A stretch of DNA of 64,000 nt, from assembly GCA_963813815.1 (NCBI GenBank), contig CAWFAD010000016.1, positions 288,001-352,000 of the forward strand, written 5' to 3'. Made by a program: the position numbers and the translations under genes. The DNA is from an uncultured bacterium. GTDB taxonomy: Bacteria > Krumholzibacteriota > Krumholzibacteriia > Krumholzibacteriales > Krumholzibacteriaceae. The notes under the pieces were generated by a model that was not told where the DNA came from, did not search any database, and saw nothing but the letters and a program-made list of their open reading frames with translations. This document shows, piece after piece, positions 16,270 to 42,804 of this stretch. Numbering within the stretch: the first letter of the stretch is position 1; every line of letters begins with the position of its first letter.

Positions 16270-16282
16270 GAGGAAGGGTATC

Positions 16283-16930
16283 GTGGCGGGGCTTCGACTC
16301 ATCATTCTCGGCGCGCCGGGTTCCGGCAAGGGGACCCAGGCGTCGCGTCTCGCCGCGGAAAAGGGGCTCCGGCACCTCTCCACGGGCGACATGCTCCGCG
16401 ACGCCGTGGCGAGAAAGACCGCGATCGGGCTCCGCGCGGCCGAATACATGAAGAAGGGGCTCCTCGGCCCGGACGAGATCATATTCGCGCTCATGCGCGA
16501 GGCGCTCGCGGCGTCGGCGGGGAGCGGATGGATTCTCGACGGGTTTCCGAGAACGCTCGCGCAGGCCGAGGAGCTCGAGAAGATGCTCGTCGAGCTCGGC
16601 GAGCGGGTCGATCGCGTCATCGACATCGAGGTCGCCCCGGAGCTCATCGTGCGCCGGCTCTCGAACCGCCGCGTGTGTCCGAAGTGCAAGGCGGTCTACA
16701 ACCTCGACACGATCGTGACGAAGACGCCGGGCCGCTGCGATGCCTGCGGGGCGGAGATCGTCAAGCGCCCCGACGACGAGGAGACGACGATTCGCAAGCG
16801 TCTCGAGGTCTACAACGATCAGACGGCCCCGGTCATCGAGTACTATCGGAAGCGGGGCGGGCTCGTGACGGTCGACGGAGCGAGCGGCATAGAGGAGATT
16901 TTCGCGGAGATTCTCCGCGCGTTGAAATGA
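16283..16930 (+). CDS. adk: Adenylate kinase (zinc LID)
   Basis: GAPGSGKGTQ, STGDMLR, LDGFPRT, CPKC...CDAC. Confidence 0.98.
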   Translation: MAGLRLIILGAPGSGKGTQASRLAAEKGLRHLSTGDMLRDAVARKTAIGLRAAEYMKKGLLGPDEIIFALMREALAASAGSGWILDGFPRTLAQAEELEKMLVELGERVDRVIDIEVAPELIVRRLSNRRVCPKCKAVYNLDTIVTKTPGRCDACGAEIVKRPDDEETTIRKRLEVYNDQTAPVIEYYRKRGGLVTVDGASGIEEIFAEILRALK

Positions 16931-25040: not shown

Positions 25041-25116
25041 TCCTCAGTAGCTCAATCGGTAGAGCATCCGGCTGTTAACCGGAGGGTTGTAGGTTCAAGT
25101 CCTACCTGAGGAGCCA
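25041..25116 (+). tRNA. tRNA-Asn (GTT)
   Basis: 76 nt cloverleaf: TCCTCAG/CTGAGGA acceptor stem, TAGCTCAATCGGTAGAGC D arm, TCCGG-CTGTTAA-CCGGA anticodon arm, GTAGG-TTCAAGT-CCTAC T arm, encoded CCA. Confidence 0.98.
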
Positions 25117-26614
25117 GTTTTTATTTCGCTCTTCCATAGGCGCATTTACCGCCATTAGTTTCTCTTCTTCCTCGATTCCATTTATCAGTATTTCAAACGG
25201 TTTCGTGAGTTCGTATTCCAGCTTCCCGTCCCGCAATATCGGGTTCCAGACGGCCATTTCCAAAAGTTGCCGCTGATGGCGCCCATCCGCCGCAAGGTAC
25301 GCTGGATAAATATTTTGCGCCACTTCCAGCAGCACGTTCGCGTCTTCCATGTATTCGAGACTTTCCTCTTCCGTTCCCGCCCGCAGCTCCTTGAGCTTTC
25401 CTTGCTCCCCTCGATACTGCTCATACTTGCTCTTCCAGAATTCCGCATCGACAACACCGGCCGTTTTATCCTCGTACAGCGTCCCGATCTTGCGCTCGAT
25501 CTCCTCGATTTCCGCTTGGAGCTTCTTTCGCTCTTTCGCCCTGTACTGCTTTTCCTCGGCCAGGAGCCCCGACATACCCTTGATGAGCCACTCAGCACGT
25601 TCCCTGGTCATTCTGAGCGCCTTCAGAGGCTCTCCGAGTAGCTCGGTCAGCCTTTCTTCCCGTATGGGCTTCTCCTGGCATTTACCGCGCGTCTTTGTGC
25701 AACGGTAGTAGACGTACTTTCCCTTCTTCTCGAAGGGCGTCAAGAATCCCCCGCAATGCCCACACCGCACGAATCCCCGGAACGTATACTCCCGCGTGTG
25801 CTTCCTCGCCCATCTTCTCGACTCTCTGACTTTCTGCGCCGTGTTGAAACACCGCCCGCGTGATGATCGCGTCATGCGTCCCCTTGTACCGCTCGCCCTT
25901 CCACACGAAATCGCCCACGTACACGGGATTCTTGAGCATGTTATCTATCTGGAAAGCGAATACCGTCTTTCCCTTCCTCGACCGCAGCCCTTTCTCCCTT
26001 GCCATCCGCGTCAGCTCGAGCAGCGACACGAAGCCCGTTGCGTAAGCATCGAAGAGCTGCCGAATGATTCCCGCCCTCGTGAAATCGATATCGATTCCCT
26101 TTGTCTGCGGATTGTTCACGTAACCGAGAGGCGCCCACGACGGGTAGAGCCCTTGCTGCGCTTTTTCGAGCATTCCCTTCCGCGTCTCCTCCGACAGCAG
26201 ATCGATGTAGCTCTTCGCGATTGCGACCTTGATGCTGTACATGAGCTTGTCGCTTTGCCGCGCATCGGCGCCGATTACTTGACCCTCTTTGACGAAATGG
26301 ACTGTGCGCCCCGTGTCCTCGATCTTCACCATGTCCCGAAAGTTGCGCGTCAGCCGGTCCGTCTTCTCGACGAGTATGTGTTCCACCTCTGGATTATGCG
26401 CCAGATAATCCAGCATCTTCTCGAATTCGCTCCGCCCGGCTGCCTTAGCGCTTTCGACTTCCTCGAATTCCCTTACGACTGATAGCCGCTGCTTCTCTGC
26501 GTAGTCTCTCAGCAATTTCCTTTGAGCAGGTATTGAGTACCCTTTCTCTGATTGTTCCTTGCTCGAAACCCGCACGTATAAAACTGCCTTGTCCATCTTC
26601 GCCTCCATCGTCAT
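25102..26614 (-). CDS. Large serine recombinase (resolvase + recombinase + zinc ribbon + coiled coil); one apparent extra base near 25848
   Basis: YVRVSSKEQ catalytic motif, KTDRLTRN, APLGY, NPVYVG, CGHCG...YYRC...C; ORFs 25682-26614 and 25102-25875 join if one T is removed from GTGTTTCAAC (minus strand). Confidence 0.9.
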
Positions 26615-27455
26615 TGTTCGCGAACCCTGCTAATACCACATTCCCTTCCACCGTTTCAATCCCCCGCGGCTCATCTATGGCGTACTCCGCGATCATTTCC
26701 TTGAGGAACCCGTTGCCGTCATAGAGCTTTCGATTAATTTCGAGGCCCCCAATTTTTTCCAGTGTATCCATGCCGATAGGGGAGACCTGCCACTTCATGT
26801 CGCCCATATCGAACCCCCGCAGCTTTATGTCTCTCGATGTCGATACTCTCCGAAGCCGCCTCGTCGCTCTTCCCCCGGATCCCTTCGTCATGTACTTTGC
26901 AAGATACCTTCCCACGTCCCGTATTTCATGTGCACGCGTGATGAACACAATGCGGCCCCCGCCCACTGCTTCCCATGCTTGGCTTATCCAATTTTGCGGG
27001 ATGAATCTATCTACGAGCGCGTGCAGATGCGGTAGCCCTGATTCGTGCAGCTCCAGAACGCAAATGTACGACGGCGCTTCATCGAACCTGCGCCTGAGGT
27101 ACACCCTGAACTTGCTCCATACGTTCCAGATGTATTCATGCGGGTTCCGGTTCTCCGGTATCGCTTGCGGATCGAGTGTCAGCGTCAGAAAGCGATCTAG
27201 TCCCTTTTCGATCGCAGCCCTTGCGATGTCATTGCATCTCTGCCATGCCCTTAGCGGTCCACACACAGGACAGCCCCACCGCTTGCAGTACAGCCGCCTG
27301 TATACGTACTTTTCTTTTCCCCCCTCTTCCGCGACCTTTCTTCTTATCGCCCTCTGCCCACATACCCTGTTACGTTTATGCTTCTTTATATCAAGTGAAG
27401 AGAGCCAAGAATCCCCGCCACCCATACCCCACACACCCTTTCTCGCCCTTCCCAA
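26445..27455 (-). CDS. Rolling-circle replication initiator (HUH endonuclease, two-tyrosine type)
   Basis: CKRWGCPVC, motif I FLTLT, motif II ELHESGLPHLHAL, motif III YLAKYMTK; start and end uncertain. Confidence 0.88.
   Translation of the reverse strand: MGRARKGVWGMGGGDSWLSSLDIKKHKRNRVCGQRAIRRKVAEEGGKEKYVYRRLYCKRWGCPVCGPLRAWQRCNDIARAAIEKGLDRFLTLTLDPQAIPENRNPHEYIWNVWSKFRVYLRRRFDEAPSYICVLELHESGLPHLHALVDRFIPQNWISQAWEAVGGGRIVFITRAHEIRDVGRYLAKYMTKGSGGRATRRLRRVSTSRDIKLRGFDMGDMKWQVSPIGMDTLEKIGGLEINRKLYDGNGFLKEMIAEYAIDEPRGIETVEGNVVLAGFANNDDGGEDGQGSFIRAGFEQGTIRERVLNTCSKEIAERLRREAAAISRKGIRGSRKR
27388..27397 (-). other. Candidate double-strand origin nick site
   Basis: Minus-strand CACTTGATAT matches the CTTG^ATA core of phiX174/pC194-type origins; lies in the rep 5' region. 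Confidence 0.5.
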
Positions 27456-27693
27456 TACGCAAACGGCCGCTCGCCCGAGCTCTCCATCAGCTCGGCCGGC
27501 GGCCTGCTCCTGAATACAGAAACAGCGTCCCTAGCATTGCCACATCTCGTTAGCCTGCTGATAGACGCTGCTAACTCGCCGCTATTCTCTTTCACCTTCC
27601 ATCCTCCCATCCTCCCCGCACCCGCAACGCAATGTGGCACAGCATCGGCAAAAGCGCAAGTACTTTATTGCTTTCCCTTAGATGCATGCCATC

Positions 27694-28140
27694 CTAACGC
27701 TTACTCCCTTTCCTCCAAACAGTGAGCCCATATACACACCAAATCGGTGATATCACTATCAAGCATTTCAGAAAGAACCAGCCAAAATCCGCCAGTTTAT
27801 CCAGCTTATCTGCGCTATTATCCGTTACCGCAAAATACGCAAATATGACAACCGATAGCAAAATGGGCCATGATATCTTCTTGATAACATGTCTTTCTAC
27901 GATGCCCGCCCAAGTAGCATCTGCTCTTATATCTTCTAATCTCTCATCGACGGGGCGAGCTTGGGCTGGAATAGGGGTGAAATCGTTAGTTTGCTCCAAA
28001 ACGCTGCTTGTAATATGCGTCCCCCCAGTTTCTAGCTCTTGTTGCAATGAGGCTTCGTCCGTGCTTGTATCTATCCTTGGCGTAATAATCTTCTTCCTTA
28101 CGCCAGACGCAATTTTGCGACGTTTTCTTGTCTCAGCCAT
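27694..28140 (-). CDS. Hypothetical protein with two C-terminal transmembrane segments
   Basis: 148 aa ORF, hydrophobic WPILLSVVIFAYFAV and FFLKCLIVISPIWCVYGL; 6 nt gap after upstream ORF. Confidence 0.6.
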   Translation of the reverse strand: MAETRKRRKIASGVRKKIITPRIDTSTDEASLQQELETGGTHITSSVLEQTNDFTPIPAQARPVDERLEDIRADATWAGIVERHVIKKISWPILLSVVIFAYFAVTDNSADKLDKLADFGWFFLKCLIVISPIWCVYGLTVWRKGSKR

Positions 28141-28146
28141 TCCGAT

Positions 28147-28836
28147 CTACCCTAAGACGAGACTCTCAATCGCCCTGTACTTTGCCCATGTTGCGTCGGA
28201 GAACCTTTGGATTTGCGTCAGCAACTCCTCGCCATTTATGACCTTTTCTGGCTTGCTCCAGTAATCGATATCGATAAAAAGGCCGACGTCCGAATACTCT
28301 TCGTCTCTCTTGAATATGCCAGCTACTTGATCTCTCTTCATCGGGCCGCTCATTGTATTAAAGTGCCCAAGCCGATCACGATAGTTCACCATACCCCCAA
28401 TGTCTTCAATCTCAGCGTCTAGTGCTCTTCTTGCGGTCTCATTCACGCCAACGTATCTTGAGAGATACAGCTCCAGCAATTTGTCAAAGCTACCTTTGTA
28501 TTCTCTGTAGAATCTTCCCCGACATCCGATTCTGTGTATCATCAACTCCTTGCCGTATCCCTCCAATTCGAACAAGAACTTAAACAGTTTCTTGCCTTTC
28601 TCCGGAAAATAGTTGGCTGTTGATGAATTGATGACCATGAAGACTGTATTCTTGAATGCAACCGTTACCCGATGCAGCTGGTCGGGATCCACGAGTGCGA
28701 TTGAATTGTCATCTATGCTCCATTCTGGCAACTCCATGAATAAGGAGATCGCCTCAGCCCAGCTGCCACGGTAATCAAGCAGCTTTGCATTTGGCTTGTA
28801 CCTTATTTCGAGTATCTGCTCGTTACGCAGTTCCAT
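28147..28836 (-). CDS. Hypothetical protein, TIGR04255-like
   Basis: 229 aa; E.ILEIRY, I.RIG.R and FIDID motifs resemble that family; AGGAG RBS. Confidence 0.6.
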   Translation of the reverse strand: MELRNEQILEIRYKPNAKLLDYRGSWAEAISLFMELPEWSIDDNSIALVDPDQLHRVTVAFKNTVFMVINSSTANYFPEKGKKLFKFLFELEGYGKELMIHRIGCRGRFYREYKGSFDKLLELYLSRYVGVNETARRALDAEIEDIGGMVNYRDRLGHFNTMSGPMKRDQVAGIFKRDEEYSDVGLFIDIDYWSKPEKVINGEELLTQIQRFSDATWAKYRAIESLVLG

Positions 28837-29056
28837 ATTTCGCTCCTATTGCCGCTACTCCTGCTTCTTGAATCATGGACAACGACTGCATGCTGTATAT
28901 CATAGCCTCTCGCAAGATTACATGTCAAGATTCTGTCCCCGCACCAAACTAGAATCATTCTCGCATCGCCCCATTTCATCGGGGTGGCGTTCTGATAGCG
29001 TTCCTAATTTCGCCCAACTTTGGGAGCCAGTCATTTCCCCTCCTCGAATCCATTCC

Positions 29057-29118
29057 GACCATTCTGGAACATCATGGAAATTTGTCTTGACATTCTTCCA
29101 TGATGATGGAAAATGGTC
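29057..29118 (+). promoter_or_regulatory. Imperfect 30-bp inverted repeat overlapping a TTGACA promoter (candidate operator)
   Basis: GACCATT..CATCATGGAA..TGTC-TT-GACA..TTCCATGATG..AATGGTC, ending 2 nt before ATG 29121. Confidence 0.6.
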
Positions 29119-29120
29119 AG

Positions 29121-30356
29121 ATGAAGCGCTCTCTCGAAACGCTCCTCGATCTCGCGCATTTCCCGCATCGGAGGATCGCATTCGTCGTGGGACCGCGGCA
29201 GGTGGGAAAGACGACCCTCGCGCAGGCCATGCTCGCGAAGCGAAAATCGAAGGATCTCTACCGCAGTTGGGACGATCTCGAGTGGCGCCGCGAATTCGCC
29301 GGCGCGCCATACGGATTCATCGATGCCTTCCGGCCGAAGGGCACGGGGGAGAGGCCGCTCGCGGTTCTGGACGAGATTCACAAGTACCCCCGATGGAAGG
29401 CGTATCTCAAGGGGCTCTGGGATACGCGCAAGGATCGAATGGATCTGTTGGTGACGGGGAGCGGACGCCTCGATGTGTATCAGCGCGGAGGCGACAGCCT
29501 TCTCGGTCGGTATCATCAGTATCGTCTGCACCCGCTATCCGTGAAGGAAATTATTGATCCCAAAGACGCGTCGCTTTCGGACAGCCCCGAAGCGGTTATG
29601 AAATCTCTTCTGAAACTCGCCGGGCCCGCTCCGGCCGAGGCGCGGAAGGCGCTCAAGGGCTTGCTGCGATGGGGAGGCTTCCCCGAGCCGTTTCTGGAGA
29701 AGAGCGAACGGCAGCATCGCCTTTGGCTGCGGGAGCGCCGCATCCTAATCGTAAAAGAAGATCTGCGCGATCTGACGCGCATTCGGATGCTCTCGCATGT
29801 GGAGGAGTTGATCGAGCTTCTTGTTCTTCGCGCGGGGGGCGTGCTTTCGTACAACGCGCTCCACGAGGATCTGCAGGTTGCCGTCGAATCGGTTCGCCAG
29901 TGGACGGACCATCTTCAGCGTCTCTACTTTCTGTTTCTGATCCGGCCGTTCGCGGGGAAGCTCGCTCGCTCCCTGCGCAAGGAGCCGAAGCTCTACCTCT
30001 GGGATTGGTCCGAGGTCATGGAAGATGGAGCCCGCTTCGAGAACCTCATCGCGAGCCACCTTCTCAAGTGGTGCCATTTTACACAGGACTTCGGATTTCC
30101 ACCGCTCGACCTTCATTACGTGCGGGACAGAGAGAAACGCGAGGTGGATTTCCTCCTGACTCTCGACCGAAAACCCTGGGCGCTTGTCGAAGCCAAGCTG
30201 TCCGACACATCGCCGGCTCCGGCCATGAGCTATTTCGCCGAACGTCTCAAGACGCCTCACAGGATTCAGGTGGTTCTGGAATGCGAGCGGCCGGGCATGG
30301 CCGGGGATGTTCATGTGATCGATGCCGCGAACTTCCTCCGCACTCTGCCTGTCTAG
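29121..30356 (+). CDS. AAA+ ATPase (AAA_14/DUF4143 type) with C-terminal PD-(D/E)xK-like domain
   Basis: Walker A GPRQVGKT, Walker B LDEIH, VTGSG, GGFPE, KLYLWD, FEN, EVDF...VEAK. Confidence 0.9.
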   Translation: MKRSLETLLDLAHFPHRRIAFVVGPRQVGKTTLAQAMLAKRKSKDLYRSWDDLEWRREFAGAPYGFIDAFRPKGTGERPLAVLDEIHKYPRWKAYLKGLWDTRKDRMDLLVTGSGRLDVYQRGGDSLLGRYHQYRLHPLSVKEIIDPKDASLSDSPEAVMKSLLKLAGPAPAEARKALKGLLRWGGFPEPFLEKSERQHRLWLRERRILIVKEDLRDLTRIRMLSHVEELIELLVLRAGGVLSYNALHEDLQVAVESVRQWTDHLQRLYFLFLIRPFAGKLARSLRKEPKLYLWDWSEVMEDGARFENLIASHLLKWCHFTQDFGFPPLDLHYVRDREKREVDFLLTLDRKPWALVEAKLSDTSPAPAMSYFAERLKTPHRIQVVLECERPGMAGDVHVIDAANFLRTLPV

Positions 30357-30390
30357 CTGCATTTCGTTGATATCCGCGCTCGTAGTTTCT

Positions 30391-30443
30391 GCATCCGGCG
30401 ATTAATCGGATGGTTGTAGGTTCAAGTTCTACCTGAGGAGCCA
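30391..30443 (+). repeat. Degenerate direct repeat of the 3' 53 nt of tRNA-Asn (att remnant)
   Basis: 48/53 identity to 25064-25116; lacks the 5' acceptor strand and D loop. Confidence 0.92.
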
Positions 30444-31099
30444 GCTTTTTGATATCCGAGCCTGTGGCACCCCCTTGGTTAACAGCCACTCTTGAAAGGC
30501 GCCTTCTCGGCGCGCCGCTATTTTCCGCACAGCTATAAGGAATTGCGCGATTGTCCGCTCGGCAGCGCGATTCTCAACGCAGGGAAGAGAGAGCCAGGAT
30601 CCTTCGCGGCGAAACGAAGTTTGTTCAATACCTGCGTACAATGCTTCAAGACTCTCTGGCTCTCCTAATGACACGGCGAGTTGGTTAACAGCTTTCTTCT
30701 TCTGGGCTCCCAGACTTGGGGAAATCAGAACATCCAGCAGCAACCTCGAAATTATATTGAAATGCAATGATTTGTATGATACGATGTACCCCATCTTGCC
30801 ATAGGGGACTGAAAACAGGATCAAAAGAGCTCACTTTCAAGCGTTAGCTTTTGGCTCGGAGGGGACACATGAAGCAACCGCGAATGCTTTGCATTGCGGC
30901 CGCGTTGTGCCTGCTCACATCAAACGCCTTTGCCTTGTCCCGAATCCGTTCAATCCGGCAACGACCATACGGTTTGATCTGCCCGTGCGGGCGCACGTGT
31001 GACAGACACCGGCCTTCGGCGAATCGAAGAAGATGATATTGCTCAGGTAGTTCATAAATCTCCAGCGTGTTTTGCTTCTCTATTCCATTAGGAGGGATC

Positions 31100-34000
31100 A
31101 TGAGAAGGAAAATGAAGAGTCTGGTGTCACTGCTGGCGTGTTGTTTCCTCATCATGGTCATCGGCTTTTCTTCCGCGTATGCCGTGTGGATTACGGACGG
31201 CGTAGCTATTGCGCCTGTTTTGGACCCGCTGCCGACGCAACCTCAGATCACCTCCGACGGATCTGGAGGATCGATCATCACATGGCAGGACTATCGCGGG
31301 GGATCCTACGACATCTACGCCCAGCGGGTGGATGCGAGCGGGGTCGTGCAATGGATGGCGAACGGGGTCGCCGTCTGCAGGGCGGGCTATGAGATGAATC
31401 CCCAGATCGTCTCCGACGGCTCCGGCGGAGCGATTATCACGTGGCAGGACTATCGCGCGGGATCCTACGACATCTACGCCCAGCGGGTGAATGCGAGCGG
31501 GGTCGTGCAATGGATGACGGACGGGATCGCTGTCTGCACGGCGGGCTATGATCAGACGTATCCCCAGATCGTCTCCGACGGCTCCGGTGGAGCGATCGTC
31601 ACGTGGTGGGACTATCGTGGCGGAAGCACCTGGGACATCTACGCCCAGCGGGTGAATGCGAGCGGAGTCGTGCAATGGATGACGGACGGGATCGCTGTCT
31701 GCACGGCGGGCTAGATCAGGCGTATCCCCAGATCGTCTCCGACGGTTCCGGCGGAGCGATCGTCACGTGGCGGGACTATCGCAGCGGGAGCACATACGAC
31801 ATCTACGCCCAGCGGGTGAATGCGAGCGGGGTCCAGTGGACCGCGAACGGCGTTGCCCTCAGCCTTTTGTACTACGGGAACCAGCAGATTCCTCAGATTG
31901 CCACTGATGGCTCGGGCGGAGCGATCGTCACGTGGCAGGACTATCGCAGTTCAACAATTATTTACATATACAGCCAGCGGGTGAACGGCAGCGGGGTTGT
32001 TTTGTGGATGGAGTATGGAGAAGATGGAGTTCCTGTCTGCACAACGCCCAGCGAGCAGATGTATCCTGATATCACCTCGAACGGTTCGGAAGGAGCGATA
32101 ATCGCGTGGTTCGACAACCGCGGATGGTATGGCGGCGCCATATACGCCCAGAGCGTGGATTCGATCGGGGCAGCGCAATGGGCGGTGGATGGGGTTGCTA
32201 TTTCCAGCGCGGCGGCGGCTATGTATGATGCGCCTAAAATTAAAATCGTTTCCGACGGCTCCGGCGGAGCGATCATCACGTGGCTGGACAATCGTGGCGG
32301 AAGCACCTACGACATCTATACCCAGCGGGTGGATGCGAGCGGGATACCCCAGTGGACGACGAACGGGGTCGCCATCTGCGCAGCCCCATACGAAAAGCTA
32401 GATCCCCAGATCACGGCGGATGGCTCGGGAGGAGCGATCATCACGTGGCAGGACTATCGCAGCGGGAGCACATACGGCATCTACGCCCAGCGGGTGGATG
32501 CGAGCGGGATACCCCAGTGGACGACGAACGGGGTCGCAGTCTGCACGGCGGCATATAATCAATATTACCCCCAGATAATCTCGGACGGCTTGGGGGGAGC
32601 GATCATCACGTGGCAGGATCCACGCGCGGGATCCTACGACATCTACGCCCAGCGGGTGGATGCGAGCGGGATACCCCAGTGGACGGCAAACGGGGTCGTT
32701 ATCTGCGCAGCTGCATACGTCCAGATAGTTCCCCAGATCACGGCGGATGACTCGGGCGGAGCGATCATTACCTGGCGGGACTATCGCAGCGGTAGCTATC
32801 CGGATATCTATGCGCAGCGGGTGGATGCGAGCGGGATACCCCAGTGGACGGCAAACGGGGTCGCCATCTGCGCAGCCACAAACAGCCAGCTAGAAGCCCA
32901 GATCACGGCGGATGGCTCGGGAGGAGCGATCATCACGTGGCAGGACCGTCGTGGCGGAAGCACCTACGACATCTACGCCCAGCGGGTGACTTGGAGCGGG
33001 GTCGTGCAGTGGATGACGGACGGGATCGCCGTCTGCATGGCGGGCTATGATCAGACGTATCCCCGGATCGTCTCCGACGGCTCCGGCGGAGCGATCGCCA
33101 CGTGGCAGGACACTCGCAGCGGTAGCTCCTACGATATCTATGCCCAGCGGGTGAATGCGAACGGAGCAGCGCTGTGGGAGGACGAGGGGGTTCCGATCTC
33201 CGCAACAAGTGATTATCAAGAAGTTCCCCGGCTCACTTCGAACGGCGCGGGGGAAGCGATCATCACATGGATGGATAGTCGTGGCGGGTATAGGGTCTAC
33301 GCCCAGCGCGCGACGGAATATGGTTTGGGCCCCATATGCAACGTGGAGCCGAGGGTGATTGATCTGCCGGAGGCCGTCCTCGTAGGCAGCTCACGGGACA
33401 CCTCATTCGTGATCACGAATGAGGGTGTGGAGCCCTTCATAGGCGGTGCGAGCGTGGTGTCCGATCAATTTTGGATCGTTTCCGGCGGCGGGAGCTTCCT
33501 CCTCTCGAACGGCCAGTCGCATGTCGTCACCGTTCGATACGAGCCGACCGCTCCAGGAACGCACAGCTGCACCATAGAGACGGGCGCCTATATCTGCAGC
33601 GACGTAACGATGACGGGAACGTCGGAACAGCTTCCCCCCGATTCCGTGATCTACGTGGATGCGGATGCGACGGGCGTGGGCGGCGGGAGCTCATGGCCCA
33701 ACGCCTTCACTGAGCTGCAGGACGCTCTGGCTCTTGCCCCGAGCTGCCCGGACGTGACGCAGATATGGGTCGCCGAGGGCACGTACCGGCCAACAACAGG
33801 CACAGACCGGACCGCCACGTTCCAGCTCCTTAACAATCTCGCGCTCTACGGCGGCTTCGCGGGTACGGAGATCGCGCGGGCCGAGCGCAACGTGCACGCG
33901 CACGTCACTACGTTGAGCGGCGATATCGGGATGCCCGGCGACGCTTCGGACAACAGCTACCACGTCGCGACGGGGAGCTTGACCGACACCACCGCCGTGC

Positions 34001-35880
34001 TCGATGGATTCACGGTGACTGGAGGAAAGGCCGACGGCGGCGATTGGGAGCAAATGGTGGGTGGGGGCCTCTACAATTTCAGGGGAAGCCCAACACTTGC
34101 GAACATCGAATTCCGCGCGAATGCAGTTCAGGGGGCTGGAGGCGGCATATACAATGAAGACGGCAACCCGAGAATGATCAACGCTATATTCAGGCAGAAC
34201 AGCGCCGCTGGAAAAGGCGGCGGCATGTGCAGCTATAACGTGTACGGTTGTCCGATCCTCACGAATGTATTGTTGATCGGCAATGCGTCAGGCGAGGCGG
34301 GTGGCGGAATTTACAGCGAAGGTTCCATGTCTCTCGTGCTCGTGAACGCGAGCTTCTTCGGAAACTCCGCTCTCGGGCCTGGCGGCGCAATGTGCAACTT
34401 CTCCGGGAGTCCAGTCATTACCAATACGATCATGTGGGGGGACAGCTCTGCATGGTGCAGCGAGGCATCTCAGAACTGTTCCGAAATCTTCAATTATCCA
34501 GGTGTAAGCCCGACGATCTCATATTCGCTGATTCAGGGGAGCGGCGGGAGCGCTGGATGGGATGCGTTGCTCGGCACGGACGGCGGCGGCAACATCGACG
34601 CCGATCCGCTCTACTACGGCGCGGAGGCGGGCGACCTTCGGCTTCTCGTGGGATCGCCCGCCATCGATGCCGGGAGCATCGTCTCGGGTCTTCCCGCGAC
34701 GGACATCGTCGGCAATCCCCGCATACAGGGCGTCACTGTCGATATGGGTGCCTACGAGGGAGGAACGGCGGCGCTCTTCAGCTATGCGCGCATGGACTCC
34801 CTCGTCGACGTTCCGGATGATCAGGGCGGTTGGCTGAGGATCCACTTCACGCGATCCTCCTACGACAACGCGCTCGAGGAGGAGTACCCGATCGAGCGGT
34901 ACGACATCCACCGGCGCGTGGATGACGTGGTGCTCCTCGCGAGCATAGCCGGCGCGGGAGAGGTCATCGCGGAAGATCTCACCGTAAAGCTGTCCGGCGG
35001 CGAGAAGATAAGCCTGGTGCCGCCTCCCTCCGATGCGGACAGCAAATATGTCAGTTACGCGGACCGGATCTATCTCGTGAATGAAGCCGACGCCGAGGCG
35101 ACCGCCCCCGCAGGCACGTGGGAGGTCATCGGAAACGTCTCCGCCGCGCAGCAGGAGCAGTACATCCGGCTCGCGCCGACACTGGCGGATTCGGCTGCGA
35201 CGATCCCATGGTCCGTGTACTACATCTCGGCGCATACGACGACGCCGAGCGTGTACTTCGATAGCCCTCCGGACAGCGGCTACTCGGTGGACAACATCGC
35301 GCCCGGGGTTCCCGAAGGTCTCATGGTTGCGTACAACACAGGGAGCGGGAACCAGCTGAGCTGGGATCCGAGCGTGGACAGCGACTTCCAGTACTTCAAG
35401 ATCTATCGCGGCACAGATACGGACTTCGTGCCTACGGCTGAGAACATGGTGGACGCGACGACCGAGACGGAGTGGAGCGATCCTGAGTACGACGGCTGGA
35501 GCGTTTACTACAAGATCGCGGCGCTCGATCATGTGGGGAACGAGAGCGCTCCGGCATCTCCCGAGTCGACGACGGGGAAGGACAATCAGCCGATCTCGGA
35601 CGCGTTCTCGCTCTATCAGAACATGCCGAACCCGTTTAACCCCAGCACGTCGATTCGCTACGATGTGCCCGCCGGTGTGGGGGCTGTGTCGCTTCGCATC
35701 TATGACGTGAGCGGCCGGCTCGTGCGGACGCTCGTAGACGGTCCGCAGGCGATGGGCCAGAAGACCGCCGTCTGGAATGGGGAAGATGATCGGGGACGCA
35801 GTGTGGTCTCAGGAGTTTATTTCTATCGGTTGGAGGCGCCGGGCTACAAGAAGACACTGAAGATGATATTGATACAATAG
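31100..35880 (+). CDS. Large secreted protein: signal peptide, 13 beta-propeller-type repeats, Ig-like domain, beta-helix, FN3-like domain, C-terminal FlgD-Ig/T9SS-like domain; 1-nt deletion at ~31713
   Basis: Repeats DGSGGAIITWQDxRxGxxDIYAQRV; SPAIDAG..DMGAYE; QNMPNPFNPST..IYDVSGRLVRTL..WNG..SGVYFYRL; GGCTAGATCAG at the break vs GGCTATGATCAG in sister repeats. Confidence 0.85.
31240..33310 (+). repeat. Intragenic tandem repeat, 13 units of ~160-170 bp
   Basis: Recurring near-identical DNA such as GACATCTACGCCCAGCGGGTG and GGAGCGATCATCACGTGG. Confidence 0.9.
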
Positions 35881-35994
35881 ACGGTGTTTCTCTCGGGTAG
35901 CTTTGGTTCTCAATAGGCCCGGCTGTCAAGTGCAAGGTGCGCTCGGCAGCCGGGCTTTTGAGCTGTGCGGCCCGCTGCGCAAGTAACCCAAAAA

Positions 35995-36111
35995 CAGAGA
36001 GAGGTTATGAAAAAGGTTGCGATCGGGGCGCCAGATTATATTTTGCGTTAACCGCGCTTAACTCCTTAGCCCTTTTTCAATTTTGACATCCGTCCGTTCC
36101 TCGATTAGAAT
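35995..36111 (+). repeat. Module junction J3: 40-nt left arm + GGCGCCAG core + right arm B containing a promoter
   Basis: CAGAGAGAGGTTATGAAAAAGGTTGCGATCGGGGCGCCAG; TTGACA(36083)-17-TAGAAT(36106). Confidence 0.85.
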
Positions 36112-36191
36112 CGTCTTTGAAGGCTCTAACTCCTTGGGGAAAAGCATCCCTGCAAGTTGGCTCGCGGCCCCCGCCGCAGCAAAGGGATCGC

Positions 36192-38432
36192 ATGATCGGC
36201 CGGACGATTTCACATTACAAGATCCTCTCGAAGCTCGGCGAGGGGGGCATGGGCGTCGTCTACAAGGCCGAAGACACCAAGCTTAGACGTACCGTAGCCC
36301 TCAAGTTCCTCCCGTCCGAGCTCACCCGCGATGCCGGCGCCAAAGCGCGGTTCGTTCAAGAGGCTCGAGCGGCAGCGGGGCTCAACCATCCCGGGATTTG
36401 CACGGTCTACGAGATTGACGAGCACGATGGCCGATCCTTCATCGCTATGGAGCTGCTGGAGGGGCAGACGCTGCGAGCCAGGCTCAATGCTGGGCCGATG
36501 CCTGCAGGAGAGGCGGTGGATATCGCCGCGCAGGTGGCGAGGGCGCTCGAAGAGGCGCATCGCAAGGGCATCGTACACCGCGATATCAAACCGGAGAATA
36601 TCATGCTCGCCTCGAGCGGCCATGTCATTATCATGGATTTCGGACTCGCCTATATGCCCGGGGTCACTCGCCTGACTCAAACGGGATCGACCATGGGCAC
36701 GGTAAACTACATGTCTCCTGAGCAGACTCGTGGTGAGGAGGTTGATGGCCGAACGGATATCTGGTCTCTCGGGGTGGTGTTGTACGAGATGCTGACGACT
36801 CAGCCCCCGTTTAGGGGGCTCTACGATCAGGCCATCATGTTCCAGATAATGAACGCGGAGCCCGCTACGCTCGCCGAGCTGCGTCCGAATCTGACGGGGC
36901 CGCTCGAAGCGATCCTGCGCCGGGCGCTCTCCAAAGACCCGGCGGATCGTCAAAAAGCGGCGGAGCTGGTCGCCGATTTGAATGCGCTAGCGGATCATGT
37001 GGGCTTCGCTTCCTCGGTCCCCGTTTCGGAAGAGGACAATGCGGGGCCGTCCATTGCGGTGCTGCCGTTTGTCAACATGAGTGCCGATCCCGAGCAGGAG
37101 TATTTCTGCGACGGCATTACGGAAGAGATTATAAATTCGCTGACGAAGGTTAAGGGCTTGCGCGTGGTTGCGCGAACCTCCGCGTTCTACTTCAAAGGAA
37201 GAACGCAGGACGTCCGCGAGATCGGAGCGAGGCTCGGAGTGGAAACGATCCTCGAGGGCAGCGTGCGCAAGTCGGGCAGCCGGGTTCGCATCACGGCGCA
37301 GTGCATCAGTGTGAGCAATGGCTATCACATTTGGTCCGAACATTACGATCGACAGTTGCAGGATATCTTCGCGGTTCAGGACGAGATAGCGCAGGCCATC
37401 ACAGAGATCCTTGAGCTAAGCCTCGTGAGACCGCGGATCGTTCCCGAGGAGAAGCGCCAGATCAAGGATTTCGAGGCTTACAATCTCTATCTCAAGGGCC
37501 GCTACCTATGGCGGGGACGAACGCTGCAGAAGATCGAGAAGAGCCTGAAGATGTTCGAGGCTTCGATCGCGAGAGATCAGTCTTCGGGCCTCGGCCATAG
37601 CGGCGTTGCGGATGTCTACAACCTCCTCGGTTGGTATGGTGTCCTCGCGCCTCGGGATTCTTTTCCGAAAGCCCTCGCGGCCGCCGAACGCGCGTTGGAA
37701 CTGGATGCCTCACTGGCGGAGGGCTGGACGTCGCGTGGATTCGCCAAGCTCTTCTACGTTTGGGATGGGCCCGGAGCGGAGAAGGACTTTCAGCGCGCCA
37801 TTGTGCTCAACCCCGGTTATTCGTTGGCGCATCATTGGTACGGGGAGTACCACCTTGTTGCGGGGAAGCTTGAGCAGGCGTTCGAGTATGCGCGCCGTGC
37901 GCTCGAGTGCGACCCGGTCAATCCAGCCCTGTATTCGTTAATGGGGTGGCTCCTTTACATCGCGCGGGACTCTGACAATTCCATCATACAGTGTTATAAA
38001 GCGCTGGAGCTGGATCCCGATCTGGCTTGGGCGAATGCGATACTCGGCTTCGGGCTCGTTCAACTGGGTCGCTCTCAGGAAGCGGTCGCTCCCTTCCGCA
38101 GAGCAGGCGAACAATTGGGGGAAGGTCTCTTCCGCGCGGCTGAAGGATACGCTCTCGCCTCCGGCGGGGATGCCTCGGGGGCTCGCACCGTTCTTGCGGA
38201 TCTGGCGCCGGGTGGCCGGTTCGGCTACGTATCTCCCGGTCTCGTGGGTGTCATCAACGCCGCTCTTGGCGACAAGGAGAGCGCATTCACATACCTTGAG
38301 AAAGCCCTCACCGAGAGGGATCTCCATCTGCTCTTCCTCGGCACAGATCCCATCTACGACAGCCTTCGGTCAGACTCGCGTTACGGCGATCTGTGCGCCC
38401 GCATCGCGAGCGCCAGCGGCGCGGTGTCCTGA
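36192..38432 (+). CDS. Hanks-type Ser/Thr kinase + TolB-like (SIAVLPF) domain + TPR repeats
   Basis: LGEGGMGVVY, VALK, HRDIKPEN, DFG, YMSPEQ; SIAVLPFVNMS..EYFCDGITEEII; TPRs. Confidence 0.93.
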   Translation: MIGRTISHYKILSKLGEGGMGVVYKAEDTKLRRTVALKFLPSELTRDAGAKARFVQEARAAAGLNHPGICTVYEIDEHDGRSFIAMELLEGQTLRARLNAGPMPAGEAVDIAAQVARALEEAHRKGIVHRDIKPENIMLASSGHVIIMDFGLAYMPGVTRLTQTGSTMGTVNYMSPEQTRGEEVDGRTDIWSLGVVLYEMLTTQPPFRGLYDQAIMFQIMNAEPATLAELRPNLTGPLEAILRRALSKDPADRQKAAELVADLNALADHVGFASSVPVSEEDNAGPSIAVLPFVNMSADPEQEYFCDGITEEIINSLTKVKGLRVVARTSAFYFKGRTQDVREIGARLGVETILEGSVRKSGSRVRITAQCISVSNGYHIWSEHYDRQLQDIFAVQDEIAQAITEILELSLVRPRIVPEEKRQIKDFEAYNLYLKGRYLWRGRTLQKIEKSLKMFEASIARDQSSGLGHSGVADVYNLLGWYGVLAPRDSFPKALAAAERALELDASLAEGWTSRGFAKLFYVWDGPGAEKDFQRAIVLNPGYSLAHHWYGEYHLVAGKLEQAFEYARRALECDPVNPALYSLMGWLLYIARDSDNSIIQCYKALELDPDLAWANAILGFGLVQLGRSQEAVAPFRRAGEQLGEGLFRAAEGYALASGGDASGARTVLADLAPGGRFGYVSPGLVGVINAALGDKESAFTYLEKALTERDLHLLFLGTDPIYDSLRSDSRYGDLCARIASASGAVS

Positions 38433-38476
38433 CTGCAGAGCACCTCCGAAGGCTAATGCGCCGAGGAACCCCAAAA

Positions 38477-38631
38477 TAGAGAGTGGTTATGAAGAGGGTT
38501 ACGTTCGGGGAGCCAGTTTTTCTGTCTGAATTCGTGGCACCCAGTTGGTTAGCACAAGCGCCCGAGAGCCGCATCCCGCGCGAGCCACCACTTCCCACAA
38601 ACCCAGTATAATTTGCGCGATGGACGGCTCG
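38477..38631 (+). repeat. Module junction J4: 40-nt left arm + GGAGCCAG core + right arm A
   Basis: TAGAGAGTGGTTATGAAGAGGGTTACGTTCGGGGAGCCAG; downstream sequence aligns with 30445-30561. Confidence 0.85.
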
Positions 38632-38815
38632 ACGGGATCTCGAGCTCGTCAAGGAAACTCTCTCAGACACAGAGGGGGGCCATGATGTCTCTTCCCATTC
38701 CCATAGGCGCGAACCTTTTCGCTTTATGCCCGAAACGCCGTGTGATACAATTAGATCATTAGGGATTTCTTGCCGTGACGAAACTGCGACAACAGCTTTC
38801 GAAAGGAGGTGATTC

Positions 38816-39421
38816 ATGAAGCAATGCGAATGTCCTCTTATTGTCTTGTGCTTCTCTGCGTTGATGCTCTTGGCCGGGCCCGGATTCGGATTTGAAATCC
38901 TGCTCGACATCGACAACGACAACGACCCGGCGACGATCAACACGTTCACCTCGGCGACGAACACCGTCGTCAAGATAGTTCTCAATCCGACAATGCCTGG
39001 TGAAACGATAGGTTTTATCGAATTCGCCCTTGGCGGCACGTGTCACTTCTGTCCGCCGGACGATCCTTCGGGCGATGTTTATTGGGGAACGGCGATCGAG
39101 CATTTCCCCGAGGAGGGGTGGGTAACGGCGCCGGGCTTCGATAGCCAGGCCTTATACGCGGTGGGAGAGCTCTGCAACGGTACTTACGGTCCGTGGGTCT
39201 TGCTGCAGTTCGAGCCGAAGAGCGGGACGATTGATCTGAATCAGCCGATGTTTCTCTGCGAGTTCGACGCGTGGTCGGTCACCTATACCGACTGCCCGCC
39301 GGCACCTCATGATCTCATGGCCCTTTATAGCGCCTATGAGTTCTGGAACAAGGTGCTGCTCGACGTTCTTATCAACACCGACGTCGGCACCTGGGGGCAG
39401 ATCAAGAGCATCTATCGCTGA
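38816..39421 (+). CDS. Secreted hypothetical protein with C-terminal TWGxIKxxYR tail
   Basis: AAGGAGGT RBS, N-terminal signal peptide, ends GTWGQIKSIYR. Confidence 0.8.
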   Translation: MKQCECPLIVLCFSALMLLAGPGFGFEILLDIDNDNDPATINTFTSATNTVVKIVLNPTMPGETIGFIEFALGGTCHFCPPDDPSGDVYWGTAIEHFPEEGWVTAPGFDSQALYAVGELCNGTYGPWVLLQFEPKSGTIDLNQPMFLCEFDAWSVTYTDCPPAPHDLMALYSAYEFWNKVLLDVLINTDVGTWGQIKSIYR

Positions 39422-39432
39422 TAAGCTCCTCC

Positions 39433-39456
39433 GAGGGCCCGCCCGCGCGGGCCCTC
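39433..39456 (+). terminator. GC-rich hairpin after the secreted-protein gene
   Basis: GAGGGCCCGC-CCGC-GCGGGCCCTC; no strong U tract. Confidence 0.4.
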
Positions 39457-39630
39457 GCCGTTAGGATTTCCCAAAGAAGCGCAGAGAGGAGTGTAATGCC
39501 CCCGGCATTTGAGCTGAGGGTGTTAACGCTCGGCGTATCAATGATGCTTCTTGGGCCCTGATCCCTGTAATCTGAGCCGTCGCCTCTCGCATTCGGGCCA
39601 GTCCTGAGCTATCCGGCGATCCTCACAATA

Positions 39631-39746
39631 CAGAGAGAGGTCATGAAGAGGGTTACGCTTGGGGAGCCGGATTATTTTTTGCGTTAACCGCCCTAACTCC
39701 CTGGCTCCTTTTCAATTTTGACATAACACCGCGTCTCGATTAGAAT
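39631..39746 (+). repeat. Module junction J5: 40-nt left arm + GGAGCCGG core + right arm B containing a promoter
   Basis: CAGAGAGAGGTCATGAAGAGGGTTACGCTTGGGGAGCCGG; TTGACA(39718)-17-TAGAAT(39741). Confidence 0.85.
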
Positions 39747-39825
39747 GGTTTTCAAGCGGTTTGGCTCTTAGAGGGACGATTTTCTGCGAGGCGGCCGGAG
39801 CGGCGCGCCATCGCGAGGCGATTGA

Positions 39826-42714
39826 ATGATCGGCCGGACGATTTCTCATTACAAGATAATAGAGAAGCTCGGCGAAGGCGGGATGGGCGTCGTCTATCGG
39901 GCCGAGGATCTCACGCTCGGCCGGACCGTGGCGCTTAAGTTCTTGCCGCCTGACTCAATTGCGCGAGAGGAAGACCGAGCCCGTCTCGTGCACGAGGCGC
40001 GGGCGGCCGCGGCGCTTCTCCATCCCAACATTTGCCCCGTCTACGAGGTCGCCGAGGCTGAGGGCCGCACGTTCATTTCGATGGCGCACATCGAGGGCCG
40101 GAGCCTCAAGGAACGCATCGCCGATGGGCCGATCCCGCTGGATGAGGCGCTTGCGATCGGCCGCCGGATAGGGGAAGCTCTCGCCGCCGCCCATACGAAA
40201 GGCATCATTCACCGCGACATCAAGCCCGCGAACATAATGCTGACCGGGGACGGCCGCCCGATGCTCATGGACTTCGGGCTCGCAAAGGTCTCTGGAGCGA
40301 CGAAGCTCACGCGTACGGGGACGACGATGGGTACGGTGGCGTACATGTCGCCGGAGCAGGTGCATGGGAAAGAGGCGGATCACCGGAGCGACATCTGGGC
40401 GCTGGGAGTGGTGCTGTACGAGCTCGTTTCGGGCAAGGCGCCGTTTGGGGGAGAGTACGAAGCCGCGCTTCTGTATTCGATCATGAATGAAGATCCCGGG
40501 CCGCTCTCGGTTGAGGGGCGCGATATTCCCGCTGGCCTCGATGGAATCATCGCCAAAGCGCTCGCGAAGGATCCGATGCGGAGGTACCAGAAGGCGGAGG
40601 AGCTTGTCGCCGACCTTGACACGCTGGCTCGAGACCGAGAGGCGTTGCCCGCGGGCAAGACCCTGCCAGCGCGGGGGCTAAAGCGCCGCTGGCGCCGCTG
40701 GCGTCCGTGGCAGCGTGGAGCGGCAATAGCTTCGATCGTGGCGCTCGCTGCGATCGCGGCAGCGCTGACGATCAGGCTTTGGCCTTCGGCTCCGGACGCC
40801 ATGGAATATTCGCTCGCCGTGATGGATTTTCGCGATCTCGCGACACCGAATGATCCGATCGTCTCCGCGGGGCTTACCGAGCTCGTGAACATGGGGCTCA
40901 TCCAGGCGGAGCTCGTGCGAATCGTTAGCTCTGACCTTTTACATGACCTGCGCCGCCGTCTCTTTGGCTCTCCGCGCGGCGCGATCGAAGATAGTCAGAC
41001 AATGGAGATTGCGCGCCAGGCCGGGGCGACGCTCTTTCTCGTAGCGACGATTGGGGAGTCCGGGGGGAACCGGGTTGTGAACTGGCGGTTGGTGGATGCC
41101 CGGAACGGTCAGAATGTAGCTGCGCGCCGGGCTGAGGGGCGCACGGACGTCGATCTCGCGGATCAAATCATAGCTCAGGTCATGCCGATGATAGCGCGCG
41201 CGTGCGGTGTCAAGGCGCCGAGTGCCGACCCGACGACAATGGAAAGCATTACGACCGGGAACCCGCGCGCCTATCAACATTACATGGCGGGTCTCCTCGC
41301 CTTCGAGGAAGGACGACCGGACGAGGCGATCACCGAGTTCAAACGGGCATTGACGCAGGATACGACATTTGCGCTGGCGCATCTCCAACTTGGGAAACTC
41401 TTTACCCGGTATCAGGATTGGGGAAATGCCGAGAAGCATAGAGAGAGGGCGTGGAGCCTGCGGTCCCGCTTGAGCACAAAGGACCAAATGCGACTTGAAG
41501 CGGCACGTCTTTCTTCTAGCAATGAACCGAGTAAACAGCGCGATGCGGCCGAGCTCCTTCGAGAGATGCGAAGACGCTGGCCGGACGACCGGATGGTGGT
41601 ACTCGAGCTGGGGGATTTGCTGATCGGATACTGGCATTTTGCGGAGGCTTTGGAGGTGTTTGAAGACGGACACCGTCTGTTTCCCGATGATGCCGGTTTG
41701 AGCGGCCGGTACGTCTCCGTACTCGGCGCCATGGGCCGATACCGGGAGGCGCTTCGCGTGGTTCGGGTCAACACGGAACGAAATCCCAACGATCCGTCGG
41801 CCTGGGATGCCGTGGGGAACGTGTATCTCGGCCTGGGGCAACCGGACAGCGCGGAGGCGGCGTTTCGCGAGGCGACGAAGATCGATCCCGAGTGGAGGCC
41901 CGAAAACTACGCCCGCTGCGCGTATTGGCGTGGAGATCTCAAGGGCGCTATCGGAATATTCGAGAAAATCCTCGCGCGGCAGGACATCAGCGCGAACAGG
42001 CGCGAAGAATTGATTACGCTGAGTACGCAGGGCTTGAACATGGCGGCGCTTTACATCGAGGCGGGGCAGTACGAAAAGGCGCGCGAAGCGCTGCGCGGAT
42101 ACATGGATTCGCAGTTCGGCCGGACGAATCAGCTGCTGCTGATGATGGGGAGCGCGCAAGAGGTGCTTGATCGGATCGAGCTCATGGATGAGGAAATCGA
42201 GCGAGCACGTTCGTACAGCTGGCGCAGGCACCGTGGCATGGCTCTCGCCATGCTCGGCGACGCCGAAGGAGCCAGAAGAGCGGTGAGCGAAGACTGCGAA
42301 TCTCTGTGGGATTGGATCTGCCGCACGTACGCTCCGCTGATGCAGGCGGAAGCCGCCCTCGCCGATGGCAACCCGCGGATGGCTTTTGACTCTCTGAACG
42401 TCATGAAAGAGATCTGTCCGGGATTCTTCGTCGCGCCCGGTGGGGATTTCTTGAGCATCCGAACGCAAACGATCCTCGCTCGCGCCTATCGGATGGATGG
42501 CCGTCTCGATGAAGCCGCCCGCGTGTACGAGGAGTGGCTCCGGAGGTGCGGCGGACACGCTCTCGGGCACTATGAGCTGGGGCAGATCTACGAGGACATG
42601 AAGCGCCCCGCGGATGCGAAGAAGGAATACGCGAAGTTCCTCGAGATGTGGTCTGAAGCTGATGAAGATTTGCCGCAACTCGTGGACGCGCGGAAGCGTC
42701 TGGCCGCCCTTTAG
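39826..42714 (+). CDS. Hanks-type Ser/Thr kinase + transmembrane helix + TolB-like domain + TPR repeats
   Basis: LGEGGMGVVY, HRDIKPAN, DFGLAK, YMSPEQ; AAIASIVALAAIAAALTI TM; SLAVMDF; TPRs. Confidence 0.93.
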   Translation: MIGRTISHYKIIEKLGEGGMGVVYRAEDLTLGRTVALKFLPPDSIAREEDRARLVHEARAAAALLHPNICPVYEVAEAEGRTFISMAHIEGRSLKERIADGPIPLDEALAIGRRIGEALAAAHTKGIIHRDIKPANIMLTGDGRPMLMDFGLAKVSGATKLTRTGTTMGTVAYMSPEQVHGKEADHRSDIWALGVVLYELVSGKAPFGGEYEAALLYSIMNEDPGPLSVEGRDIPAGLDGIIAKALAKDPMRRYQKAEELVADLDTLARDREALPAGKTLPARGLKRRWRRWRPWQRGAAIASIVALAAIAAALTIRLWPSAPDAMEYSLAVMDFRDLATPNDPIVSAGLTELVNMGLIQAELVRIVSSDLLHDLRRRLFGSPRGAIEDSQTMEIARQAGATLFLVATIGESGGNRVVNWRLVDARNGQNVAARRAEGRTDVDLADQIIAQVMPMIARACGVKAPSADPTTMESITTGNPRAYQHYMAGLLAFEEGRPDEAITEFKRALTQDTTFALAHLQLGKLFTRYQDWGNAEKHRERAWSLRSRLSTKDQMRLEAARLSSSNEPSKQRDAAELLREMRRRWPDDRMVVLELGDLLIGYWHFAEALEVFEDGHRLFPDDAGLSGRYVSVLGAMGRYREALRVVRVNTERNPNDPSAWDAVGNVYLGLGQPDSAEAAFREATKIDPEWRPENYARCAYWRGDLKGAIGIFEKILARQDISANRREELITLSTQGLNMAALYIEAGQYEKAREALRGYMDSQFGRTNQLLLMMGSAQEVLDRIELMDEEIERARSYSWRRHRGMALAMLGDAEGARRAVSEDCESLWDWICRTYAPLMQAEAALADGNPRMAFDSLNVMKEICPGFFVAPGGDFLSIRTQTILARAYRMDGRLDEAARVYEEWLRRCGGHALGHYELGQIYEDMKRPADAKKEYAKFLEMWSEADEDLPQLVDARKRLAAL

Positions 42715-42728
42715 ATTGCCTCCCAAAG

Positions 42729-42804
42729 CAGAGGGAGATAAGGCGGAGGGTTACGTCAGGGGAGCCAGATTATTTCTATCCGAGCTCGCGGCGTCCCCTT
42801 GGTT
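42729..42804 (+). repeat. Module junction J6: 40-nt left arm + GGAGCCAG core + right arm A
   Basis: CAGAGGGAGATAAGGCGGAGGGTTACGTCAGGGGAGCCAG then TATCCGAGC..CCCCTTGGTT as at 30445-30480 (27/36). Confidence 0.8.

Follow-up and report, generated by a model that had tools for sequence, protein, structure and literature searches.

Integrons (IntI/attI/attC) are arrays of mostly single-gene cassettes that bear a conserved site at the downstream end, enter at one fixed site, can be reordered and become fused when a site is lost. These same properties recur in an array of gene-sized units behind a tRNA-Asn gene of an uncultured bacterium of the Krumholzibacteriaceae; the array behaves like an integron, most likely by means of a serine recombinase. 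The array occupies positions 25041-42804 of the window, by which we mean the whole 64,000-nucleotide stretch analysed (positions 288,001 to 352,000 of contig CAWFAD010000016.1, assembly GCA_963813815.1).

Several other described systems come close to this locus. The ssrA islands of Dehalococcoides (DsiB; McMurdie et al., 2011, PMC3146451) likewise stand in tandem at the 3' end of a tDNA, encode on the reverse strand a serine recombinase of ~500-540 aa whose 3' end overlaps the att site, and have, upstream of the direct repeat, a conserved motif; 15 of them are without an integration module and were proposed to be cis-mobilisable elements (CIMEs). CIMEs, and accretion of integrative and conjugative or integrative and mobilisable elements, similarly involve integrase-less units that keep attL and attR and stack by repeated site-specific integration, with composite excision possible (PMC5704250). 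Composite staphylococcal cassette chromosome (SCC) elements, moved by CcrAB or CcrC, share with our locus a large serine recombinase (LSR), a position at a conserved gene's 3' end, att sites in the interior, units lacking a recombinase and, apparently, degenerate inverted half-sites, and Ccr is reported to act on attP x attP (PMC13739063, PMC3783163). The tycheposon islands of Prochlorococcus are also seeded at tRNA genes, built by repeated integration and furnished with partial tRNA copies (bioRxiv 10.1101/2020.12.28.424599).

The target of the array is the tRNA-Asn(GTT) gene at 25041-25116 on the plus strand. A core, GGAGCCAG at 25110-25117, includes its discriminator and CCA, and this direct repeat of the tRNA-Asn 3' end is present at every boundary (cores at 25110, 29023, 30437, 36027, 38509, 39663 and 42761). 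The plus strand of 25041-42804 holds six copies of GGAGCCAG against 0.21 expected from the genome; one copy, at 42268, falls within a kinase gene (kinase 2, described below), so the core alone is not diagnostic. Four modules behind the tRNA gene end in a further element, the P arm, a half-site of ~36 nt (36-41 nt) left of the core. When the 2.53-Mb genome is scanned with a weight matrix made from 122 P arms taken elsewhere (other genomes and metagenome loci), exactly four copies are found, all in the array, at 33.9-75.7 bits compared with 1.6 for the next best match; a matrix made from the four window arms gives them 50-62 bits and the next genome match 15. Four copies speak against a repetitive extragenic palindrome or miniature inverted-repeat transposable element (REP/MITE), and the arm is not scattered through the genome; scattering is what an earlier note on this DNA, made from its letters, had counted against its own interpretation. 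The same note had also considered a single duplication of a kinase segment, which is excluded since the arm ends non-kinase cassettes too and the kinases are alike only in their N-terminal region. Its seven core coordinates are all correct, its hand-counted arm identities (junctions J4/J5 34/40, J3/J4 33/40 and J5/J6 30/40) proved exact on recount, and the right-hand arms A and B and the module contents match its description. The modules have a GC content of 0.52-0.62, compared with ~0.65 for the contig. The array at tRNA-Asn is real.

Each cassette runs from core to core; its right end is usually a P half-site, in some a tRNA 3' fragment, and its left arm is specific to the cassette. A profile scan of the genome and its relatives, which the earlier note had proposed, found the arm confined to the array in this genome and the P-core pattern (at most two mismatches) in 22 of 52 genomes of the order, with 0 for a reversed-pattern control. 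The exact pattern occurs in 102 metagenome stretches (80 with flanks) and 3 viral contigs. Removal of 8 duplicate loci, loci below 1 kb and 7 loci without a matrix match left 101 stretches, and the collection comprises 156 non-redundant junctions, 126 of them P-type, with near-identical strains still included. Among 56 non-redundant P-ended intervals (median 2.3 kb), 33 hold one open reading frame (ORF) of at least 110 aa and 3 hold none, and stacks of 4-7 such gene-sized units are common. LSR homology appears in one interval, the composite first one of genome G012, so that 55/56 resemble CIMEs, which have no integrase and keep att sites on both sides; none of the 60 cargo proteins scanned (from 79 cargo ORFs of at least 200 aa) belongs to a recombinase family. 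These 60 comprise 10 FlgD-Ig, 5 AAA_14+DUF4143, 3 AbiEii, 2 kinase and 2 SpoIIE proteins, and 10 without a family, among others. One plus-strand gene per interval and no recombinase, as first described, holds behind the first module of this array, but the plus-strand rule is not general: cargo ORFs across the arrays number 72 on the plus and 37 on the minus strand, some of them possibly spurious. Right arms are diverse, the largest similarity cluster (arm A) taking in 17 of 153 and 90 being singletons.

Three further observations concern the form of such arrays. Contig C1 of G023 (L043-L048, L228) carries 12 P sites, all on the plus strand, scattered far from a minus-strand tRNA-Asn in a scaffold with many N gaps; this pattern reflects either scaffold order or true dispersal. 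Gene-less mini units with 45-110 bp between two cores are found at L004:6363-6412 (G012), L031:6385-6430 (G038) and L219:244-353 (G062), and are too short for ordinary excision. Contig C3 of G115 (L210-L245; junctions +21112, +40707 and +46177 of the joined stretch) has a different repeated left arm, reading WLP-x-S/W-DALRT, with the same core, and is a parallel array in another family with its own P arm.

The same cassettes stand in differing orders and beside differing neighbours in related species. The shared genes run M415-TonB-A402-A418 in G003, A418-A402-TonB in G009, A402-A418-M415-TonB in G015, A402-TonB-A418 in G005 (on a contig without the tRNA) and A418-M415 in the genome of the window, G000 in these comparisons; G013 was left out because its first unit holds a gene different from that of the ATPase cassette. 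Compared pairwise among these five genomes, 13/23 pairs of shared cassette genes are swapped and 10/23 are in the same order, the orientation of each gene being kept; the genomes are kin and the pairs not independent. Gene content and order behind tRNA-Asn differ among congeners, and the identical order in relatives that the earlier note had named as contrary evidence is not found. Between species, the whole length of the TonB cassette (2.3 kb) can be aligned at 91.5% and that of the ATPase cassette (1.4 kb) at 90%, while the flanks on either side are unrelated (0.30-0.35 identity), cassette pairs at 99.4% and 97% identity have unrelated upstream neighbours, and one right arm stands behind the tRNA in one genome and behind a P arm in another, the core being the only common part. 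In G015, G005 and G009 cassettes have been fused by deletion of a junction. Four sequencing runs, which amount to contigs of relatives (best DNA share 0.23, the others small), contributed one contig from run X2 that joins the tRNA end at 25118 to arm B at 36036; its short side of 52 letters is 88% alike and possibly stems from a relative.

As far as sequence comparison can speak, recombinase-free units in differing orders fit the earlier proposal of non-autonomous cassettes that a trans-acting recombinase moves at a tRNA-end att site. We consider it probable that the locus is a tandem accretion array at the tRNA-Asn 3' end, whose units are for the most part gene-sized, non-autonomous cassettes mobilised in trans by LSRs that target tRNA genes. 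A different history would have every unit enter as a complete recombinase-bearing island, lose its recombinase and remain immobile since, leaving the P arms as fossils. This is the standard CIME route (PMC5704250), and it accords with right arms that are recombinase 3' ends (mL091, G013b, mL149, G062b), with decayed copies or remnants of the recombinase gene LSR1, introduced below, at the tRNA in G012, G004 and G048, and with the P arm being readable as a recombinase C-terminal extension. However, a given recombinase-free cassette recurs with both its ends unchanged and in varying order, for which identical independent deletions would be required. In ends that are non-coding, moreover, the P-arm reading frame is 96-100% conserved at its fourfold-degenerate positions, which indicates selection on the DNA. 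We regard this history as unlikely.

It is also conceivable that a recombinase only adds units at the tRNA while RecA-type exchange between the 45-50-bp repeats of P arm and core reorders and removes them. The P arms are 70-95% alike, one cassette pair shares additional letters (~10 nt) upstream of the arm, and helper elements are often not found. Repeats of 45-50 bp are, however, short for RecA, and such exchange cannot place a cassette directly behind the tRNA, where only the 8-nt core is common, except by first insertion; the edge of conservation at -36 is moreover sharp, as befits a protein binding site. We regard exchange of this kind as unlikely too, and give it slightly less credence than the loss of recombinases from complete islands.

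Counted from the start of the core, the site is most conserved between -20 and +6 and less so out to -36, and to the right of the core the conserved part is only an AT-rich run of ~8 nt. Within the core, C5 is conserved in 95% and C6 in 99%, and position 7 is variable (A in 81%). An offset of 10 is the mirror position for a centre between C5 and C6, and GGTTAAC lies no more than 2 nt from the mirror of the tRNA's GTTAACC in 25/156 junctions against 0.04 expected, although most right arms are without a mirror of the left half-site. This partial dyad symmetry points to a crossover at the CC of the tRNA's CCA (GGAG-CC-A), in the manner of a serine recombinase, which would keep the tRNA through the discriminator intact. 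The inner 25 bp of the site agree with an LSR half-site, that of LI integrase (PMC3783163). At two junctions of G021 (L018:1534, L050:4180) the right arm is a P arm in inverted orientation, with offsets of 10 and 11, which gives a symmetric attP-like site.

The least probable explanation, and in our view a very improbable one, is that a tyrosine recombinase (an integron integrase, Xer or a tRNA integrase) acts at the junctions, or that the repeat is an RNA element, a terminator or a REP/MITE. Tyrosine integrases leave displaced tRNA ends, which the tRNA fragments of 54-60 nt in the arrays resemble; mirror offsets vary by 1-2 nt; and the 12 P sites of the gapped G023 scaffold lie away from tRNA-Asn. 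Against this, folding of 60 junctions, both strands, as RNA and as DNA gave no hairpin (mean z between -0.25 and 0.15, no more than 7/60 being below -2), so the junctions are not attC sites, and Rfam matched only tRNA there, which disposes of the attC and terminator readings alike. No PF00589 (tyrosine recombinase) match exists in the array ORFs, the single one in G000 lying on another contig, C11, with similar-scoring counterparts in three congeners. The confinement of the four P arms to the array likewise speaks against a dispersed repeat, and serine recombinase genes overlap or follow the sites.

Two families of serine recombinase use this core, and both are candidate movers of the P-ended cassettes. 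An LSR with resolvase, recombinase and zinc-ribbon domains (PF00239, PF07508, PF13408) is present at the att site itself: LSR1, at 25102-26614 on the minus strand, whose 3' end reads through the core into tRNA-Asn. In this assembly a single change of frame near 25844-25851 interrupts the gene; it may be an assembly error, since a contig from another sequencing run has one base fewer at 25844 and SecY (15179-16451) is also divided between two ORFs; the assembly probably carries indel errors, and the glucan synthase at 43039-52194 is spread over many ORFs. Relatives of LSR1 terminate in tRNA genes (tRNA-Asn, -Glu, -Arg and -Asp), at the 3' end. A match of some kind occurs in 36/151 genomes, intact genes ending in tRNA-Asn being found in G036, G034 and G115 and a partial one in G092. 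The full-length homolog P0010, with 57% and 45% identity to two parts of the window gene, continues at its C-terminus past the core as WLPIRNPLRNVLSF, the translation of a P-arm variant in G034, G062 and G023, and may represent a circular form or an insertion behind a P arm. The second family, LSR2, accompanies DUF2924 in prophage-like modules at the tRNA-Asn core, behind arm-A-like arms, in G037, G060, G102 (C22), G143 (C3), L177 and L138, loci L028, L035 and L036 being among the sites; DUF2924 occurs alone in G055 and G023 and may be an accessory or directionality factor. At the distal ends of the DUF2924-LSR2 elements either the contig end was reached or no P arm was found.

The first module behind the tRNA, that of LSR1, continues on the minus strand with a Rep protein (PF23343 REP_ORF2-G2P; 26445-27455), part of the same helper module, and with two cargo ORFs of 148 and 229 aa without a Pfam match (27694-28836). 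Its distal junction on the plus strand (28980-29030, core 29023) has a differing left arm, WLPKLGEIRNAIR on the reverse strand, which is the module's own distal arm rather than a P arm. The ATPase cassette follows, its gene A418 (AAA_14 + DUF4143; 29100-30356, plus strand) occurring in G003, G005, G009 and G015 at other positions. It ends in a degenerate tRNA-Asn 3' fragment (54 nt, 91%) with core 30437 (30391-30444, plus), which serves as its downstream half-site here, in G003 and G009, and in one metagenome contig. Such tRNA 3' fragments also close at least two other cassettes. Beyond it lies arm A (30445-30585, plus), a left end of ~140 nt common to many cassettes, with a GGTTAAC that mirrors the tRNA anticodon region.

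The remaining features up to 42804 are all on the plus strand. Arm A leads into a repeat-rich surface or secreted protein with a C-terminal FlgD-Ig domain (31067-35880; ORFs 31067-31714 and 31603-35880). Between 31234 and 33375 this gene contains about ten internal repeats of 160-165 nt, a family found also in many relatives' cassettes and on contig C11. Junction J3 (35991-36034) consists of a P arm and the variant core GGCGCCAG, and is followed by arm B (36035-36115), with a promoter-like TTGACA-17-TAGAAT at about 36083-36111, and by kinase 1, a Ser/Thr kinase with TPR (36117-38432). J4 (P arm and core, 38473-38516), the top-scoring copy, precedes a copy of arm A (38517-38630) and a putative secreted protein of 201 aa (38816-39421) without a Pfam match, one of whose 18 homologs is named Ca. 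Krumholzibacteria. J5 (39627-39670) has a P arm and core GGAGCCGG, and behind it a copy of arm B (39671-39750) with the identical promoter-like motif at about 39718-39746 introduces kinase 2 (39826-42714), again a Ser/Thr kinase with TPR. The most diverged copy, J6 (P arm and core, 42725-42768), and a short copy of arm A (42769-42804) precede the glucan synthase, a fragmented GH94/glucoamylase gene.

The stop codon of kinase 2 lies ~10 nt ahead of its P arm. Three chromosomal paralogs on contig C12 are 74-82% identical to the gene in DNA sequence, and neither a P arm nor an arm B was found beside them. Capture of host-type genes is suggested by this comparison of kinase 2 with its armless paralogs. 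The C12 genes (83500-91300, minus strand) are three tandem Ser/Thr kinase genes, the closest kinase 2 paralogs, with kinase domains ~85% identical, and sit 8 kb downstream of tRNA-Thr(CGT) without att-like repeats. Past 42804, the M415 gene (52442-53684, minus) is a P-bounded cassette in G003 and stands without a junction here; relatives carry it, and one gene outside the window, as array cargo, so the array continues here as an older zone whose junctions are eroded. The last 2 kb of the glucan synthase region (50311-52282) have an 87% copy on contig C8 (56208-58170), ~17 kb downstream of the tmRNA gene, and the 5 kb behind that gene, at GC 0.55, are a possible second island. Counts of 3' 8-mers over 30 kb downstream of each tRNA and tmRNA gene of the genome gave no second array.

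These features can be accommodated in a model in which a transient helper, either the module of LSR1 and Rep (25102-29022) or a DUF2924-LSR2 prophage-like element, would supply the recombinase. In the pairing made by the enzyme, one partner would be the tRNA or a P half-site, recognised strictly, and the other a site recognised only loosely. Single cassettes (the first one) or blocks would be excised as circles carrying a P-core-right-arm site, and the circles would re-insert at the tRNA or at an internal junction. Block excision and re-entry through an internal site could permute the order using canonical pairings alone, and A118 integrase and CcrAB are both reported to pair P with P (PMC3783163). 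Some cassettes, at least, may have arisen as deletion derivatives of larger recombinase elements: arm A matches the end of DUF2924-LSR2 elements and a few right arms are remnants of recombinase ends, most right arms being mutually unrelated. Junctions would later erode and cassettes fuse. A stronger version, which we offer tentatively and hold to be possible rather than probable, is that this is a working serine-recombinase analogue of the integron, in which cassettes would enter at the tRNA CCA end and the P arm would be their one-sided tag, the unrelated families LSR1 and DUF2924-LSR2 would share the crossover, and helpers would capture host-type signalling and surface genes and reorder them in living populations instead of just piling up decayed islands.

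Several observations weigh against movement of the cassettes in trans by such recombinases. The outer motifs, 28-45 bp from the centre, exceed the 25-bp half-site described for LI integrase (PMC3783163). Right arms resemble recombinase 3'-end remnants in 8/154 cases with z>3, among which are one inverted P arm and two recombinase genes that stand at the tRNA; that all right arms are recombinase tails is mostly not so, given this count and stops in the W frame in 69/157, compared with 84 and 96 in the other frames. Of 184 LSR-like proteins only P0010 has a clear P-arm tail, and P0013 has a partial one. In both G000 and G012 the LSR1 module ends in an arm other than the P arm, so the adjacent LSR1 is only a candidate for the cognate enzyme, and PF07508 has no match in the array-bearing G009 (79% complete) and G015 (84% complete). 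Cassette genes have diverged at least as much as core genes (G003-G015 fourfold-site differences 0.14-0.27 against 0.07-0.13 for rpoA/rpsD); reordering may therefore be slow or old, and recent horizontal transfer of cassettes among congeners is unsupported. In one pair at 99.4% identity the shared stretch extends ~10 nt upstream of the P arm, which fits homologous exchange. Finally, neither an excision circle nor a same-population empty site was seen: the search for circles suggested by the earlier note gave none among 15 of 64 joints listed, in contigs of relatives, and yielded instead the contig that joins the tRNA end to arm B.

If the model is true, cassette capture and shuffling, thought to be a speciality of integrons, are also carried out by serine recombinases at tRNA ends in uncultured bacteria, and here the process would generate diversity in surface (FlgD-Ig) proteins, kinases, ATPases and some defence genes. 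The more than 100 natural att-site variants permit a direct test of one-sided recognition and relaxed directionality, which bears both on how SCC and ssrA composites are excised and on recombinase tools for loading a single site with many payloads.

In the literature, we found no description of gene-sized serine-recombinase cassette arrays at tRNA ends or for this lineage, although subscription journals were mostly uncovered and supplements could hold comparable arrays. The integron-like character suggested by the earlier note stands for behaviour and not for membership: three integron features were tested and all are absent, namely the attC hairpin, IntI (or any tyrosine integrase) beside the array and promoterless co-oriented cassettes, cargo here facing both ways, some cassettes having a promoter-like motif and the platform being a tRNA. 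Among tycheposons 910/937 have tyrosine integrases and the repeats are tRNA fragments, whereas the half-site here is element-derived (bioRxiv 10.1101/2020.12.28.424599). SCC elements target rlmH with a GA dinucleotide, compared with a tRNA and, by our reading, CC, and composites make up 5.9% of extracted SCC elements, whereas stacks are common here (PMC13739063, PMC3783163). CIMEs are described as decayed elements mobilised in cis (PMC5704250), whereas here recombinase-free units dominate and have apparently been reordered as units. The ssrA islands use the T-loop of tmRNA rather than, as proposed here, the CCA of tRNA-Asn, and have a six-gene module in place of a helper LSR and Rep beside mostly single-gene units; swapped cassette order across species sets our arrays apart from them (PMC3146451). 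The architecture is thus already known from ssrA islands, CIMEs and SCC composites; what is new is the gene-sized units, the one-sided conserved site and the comparative evidence for reordering.

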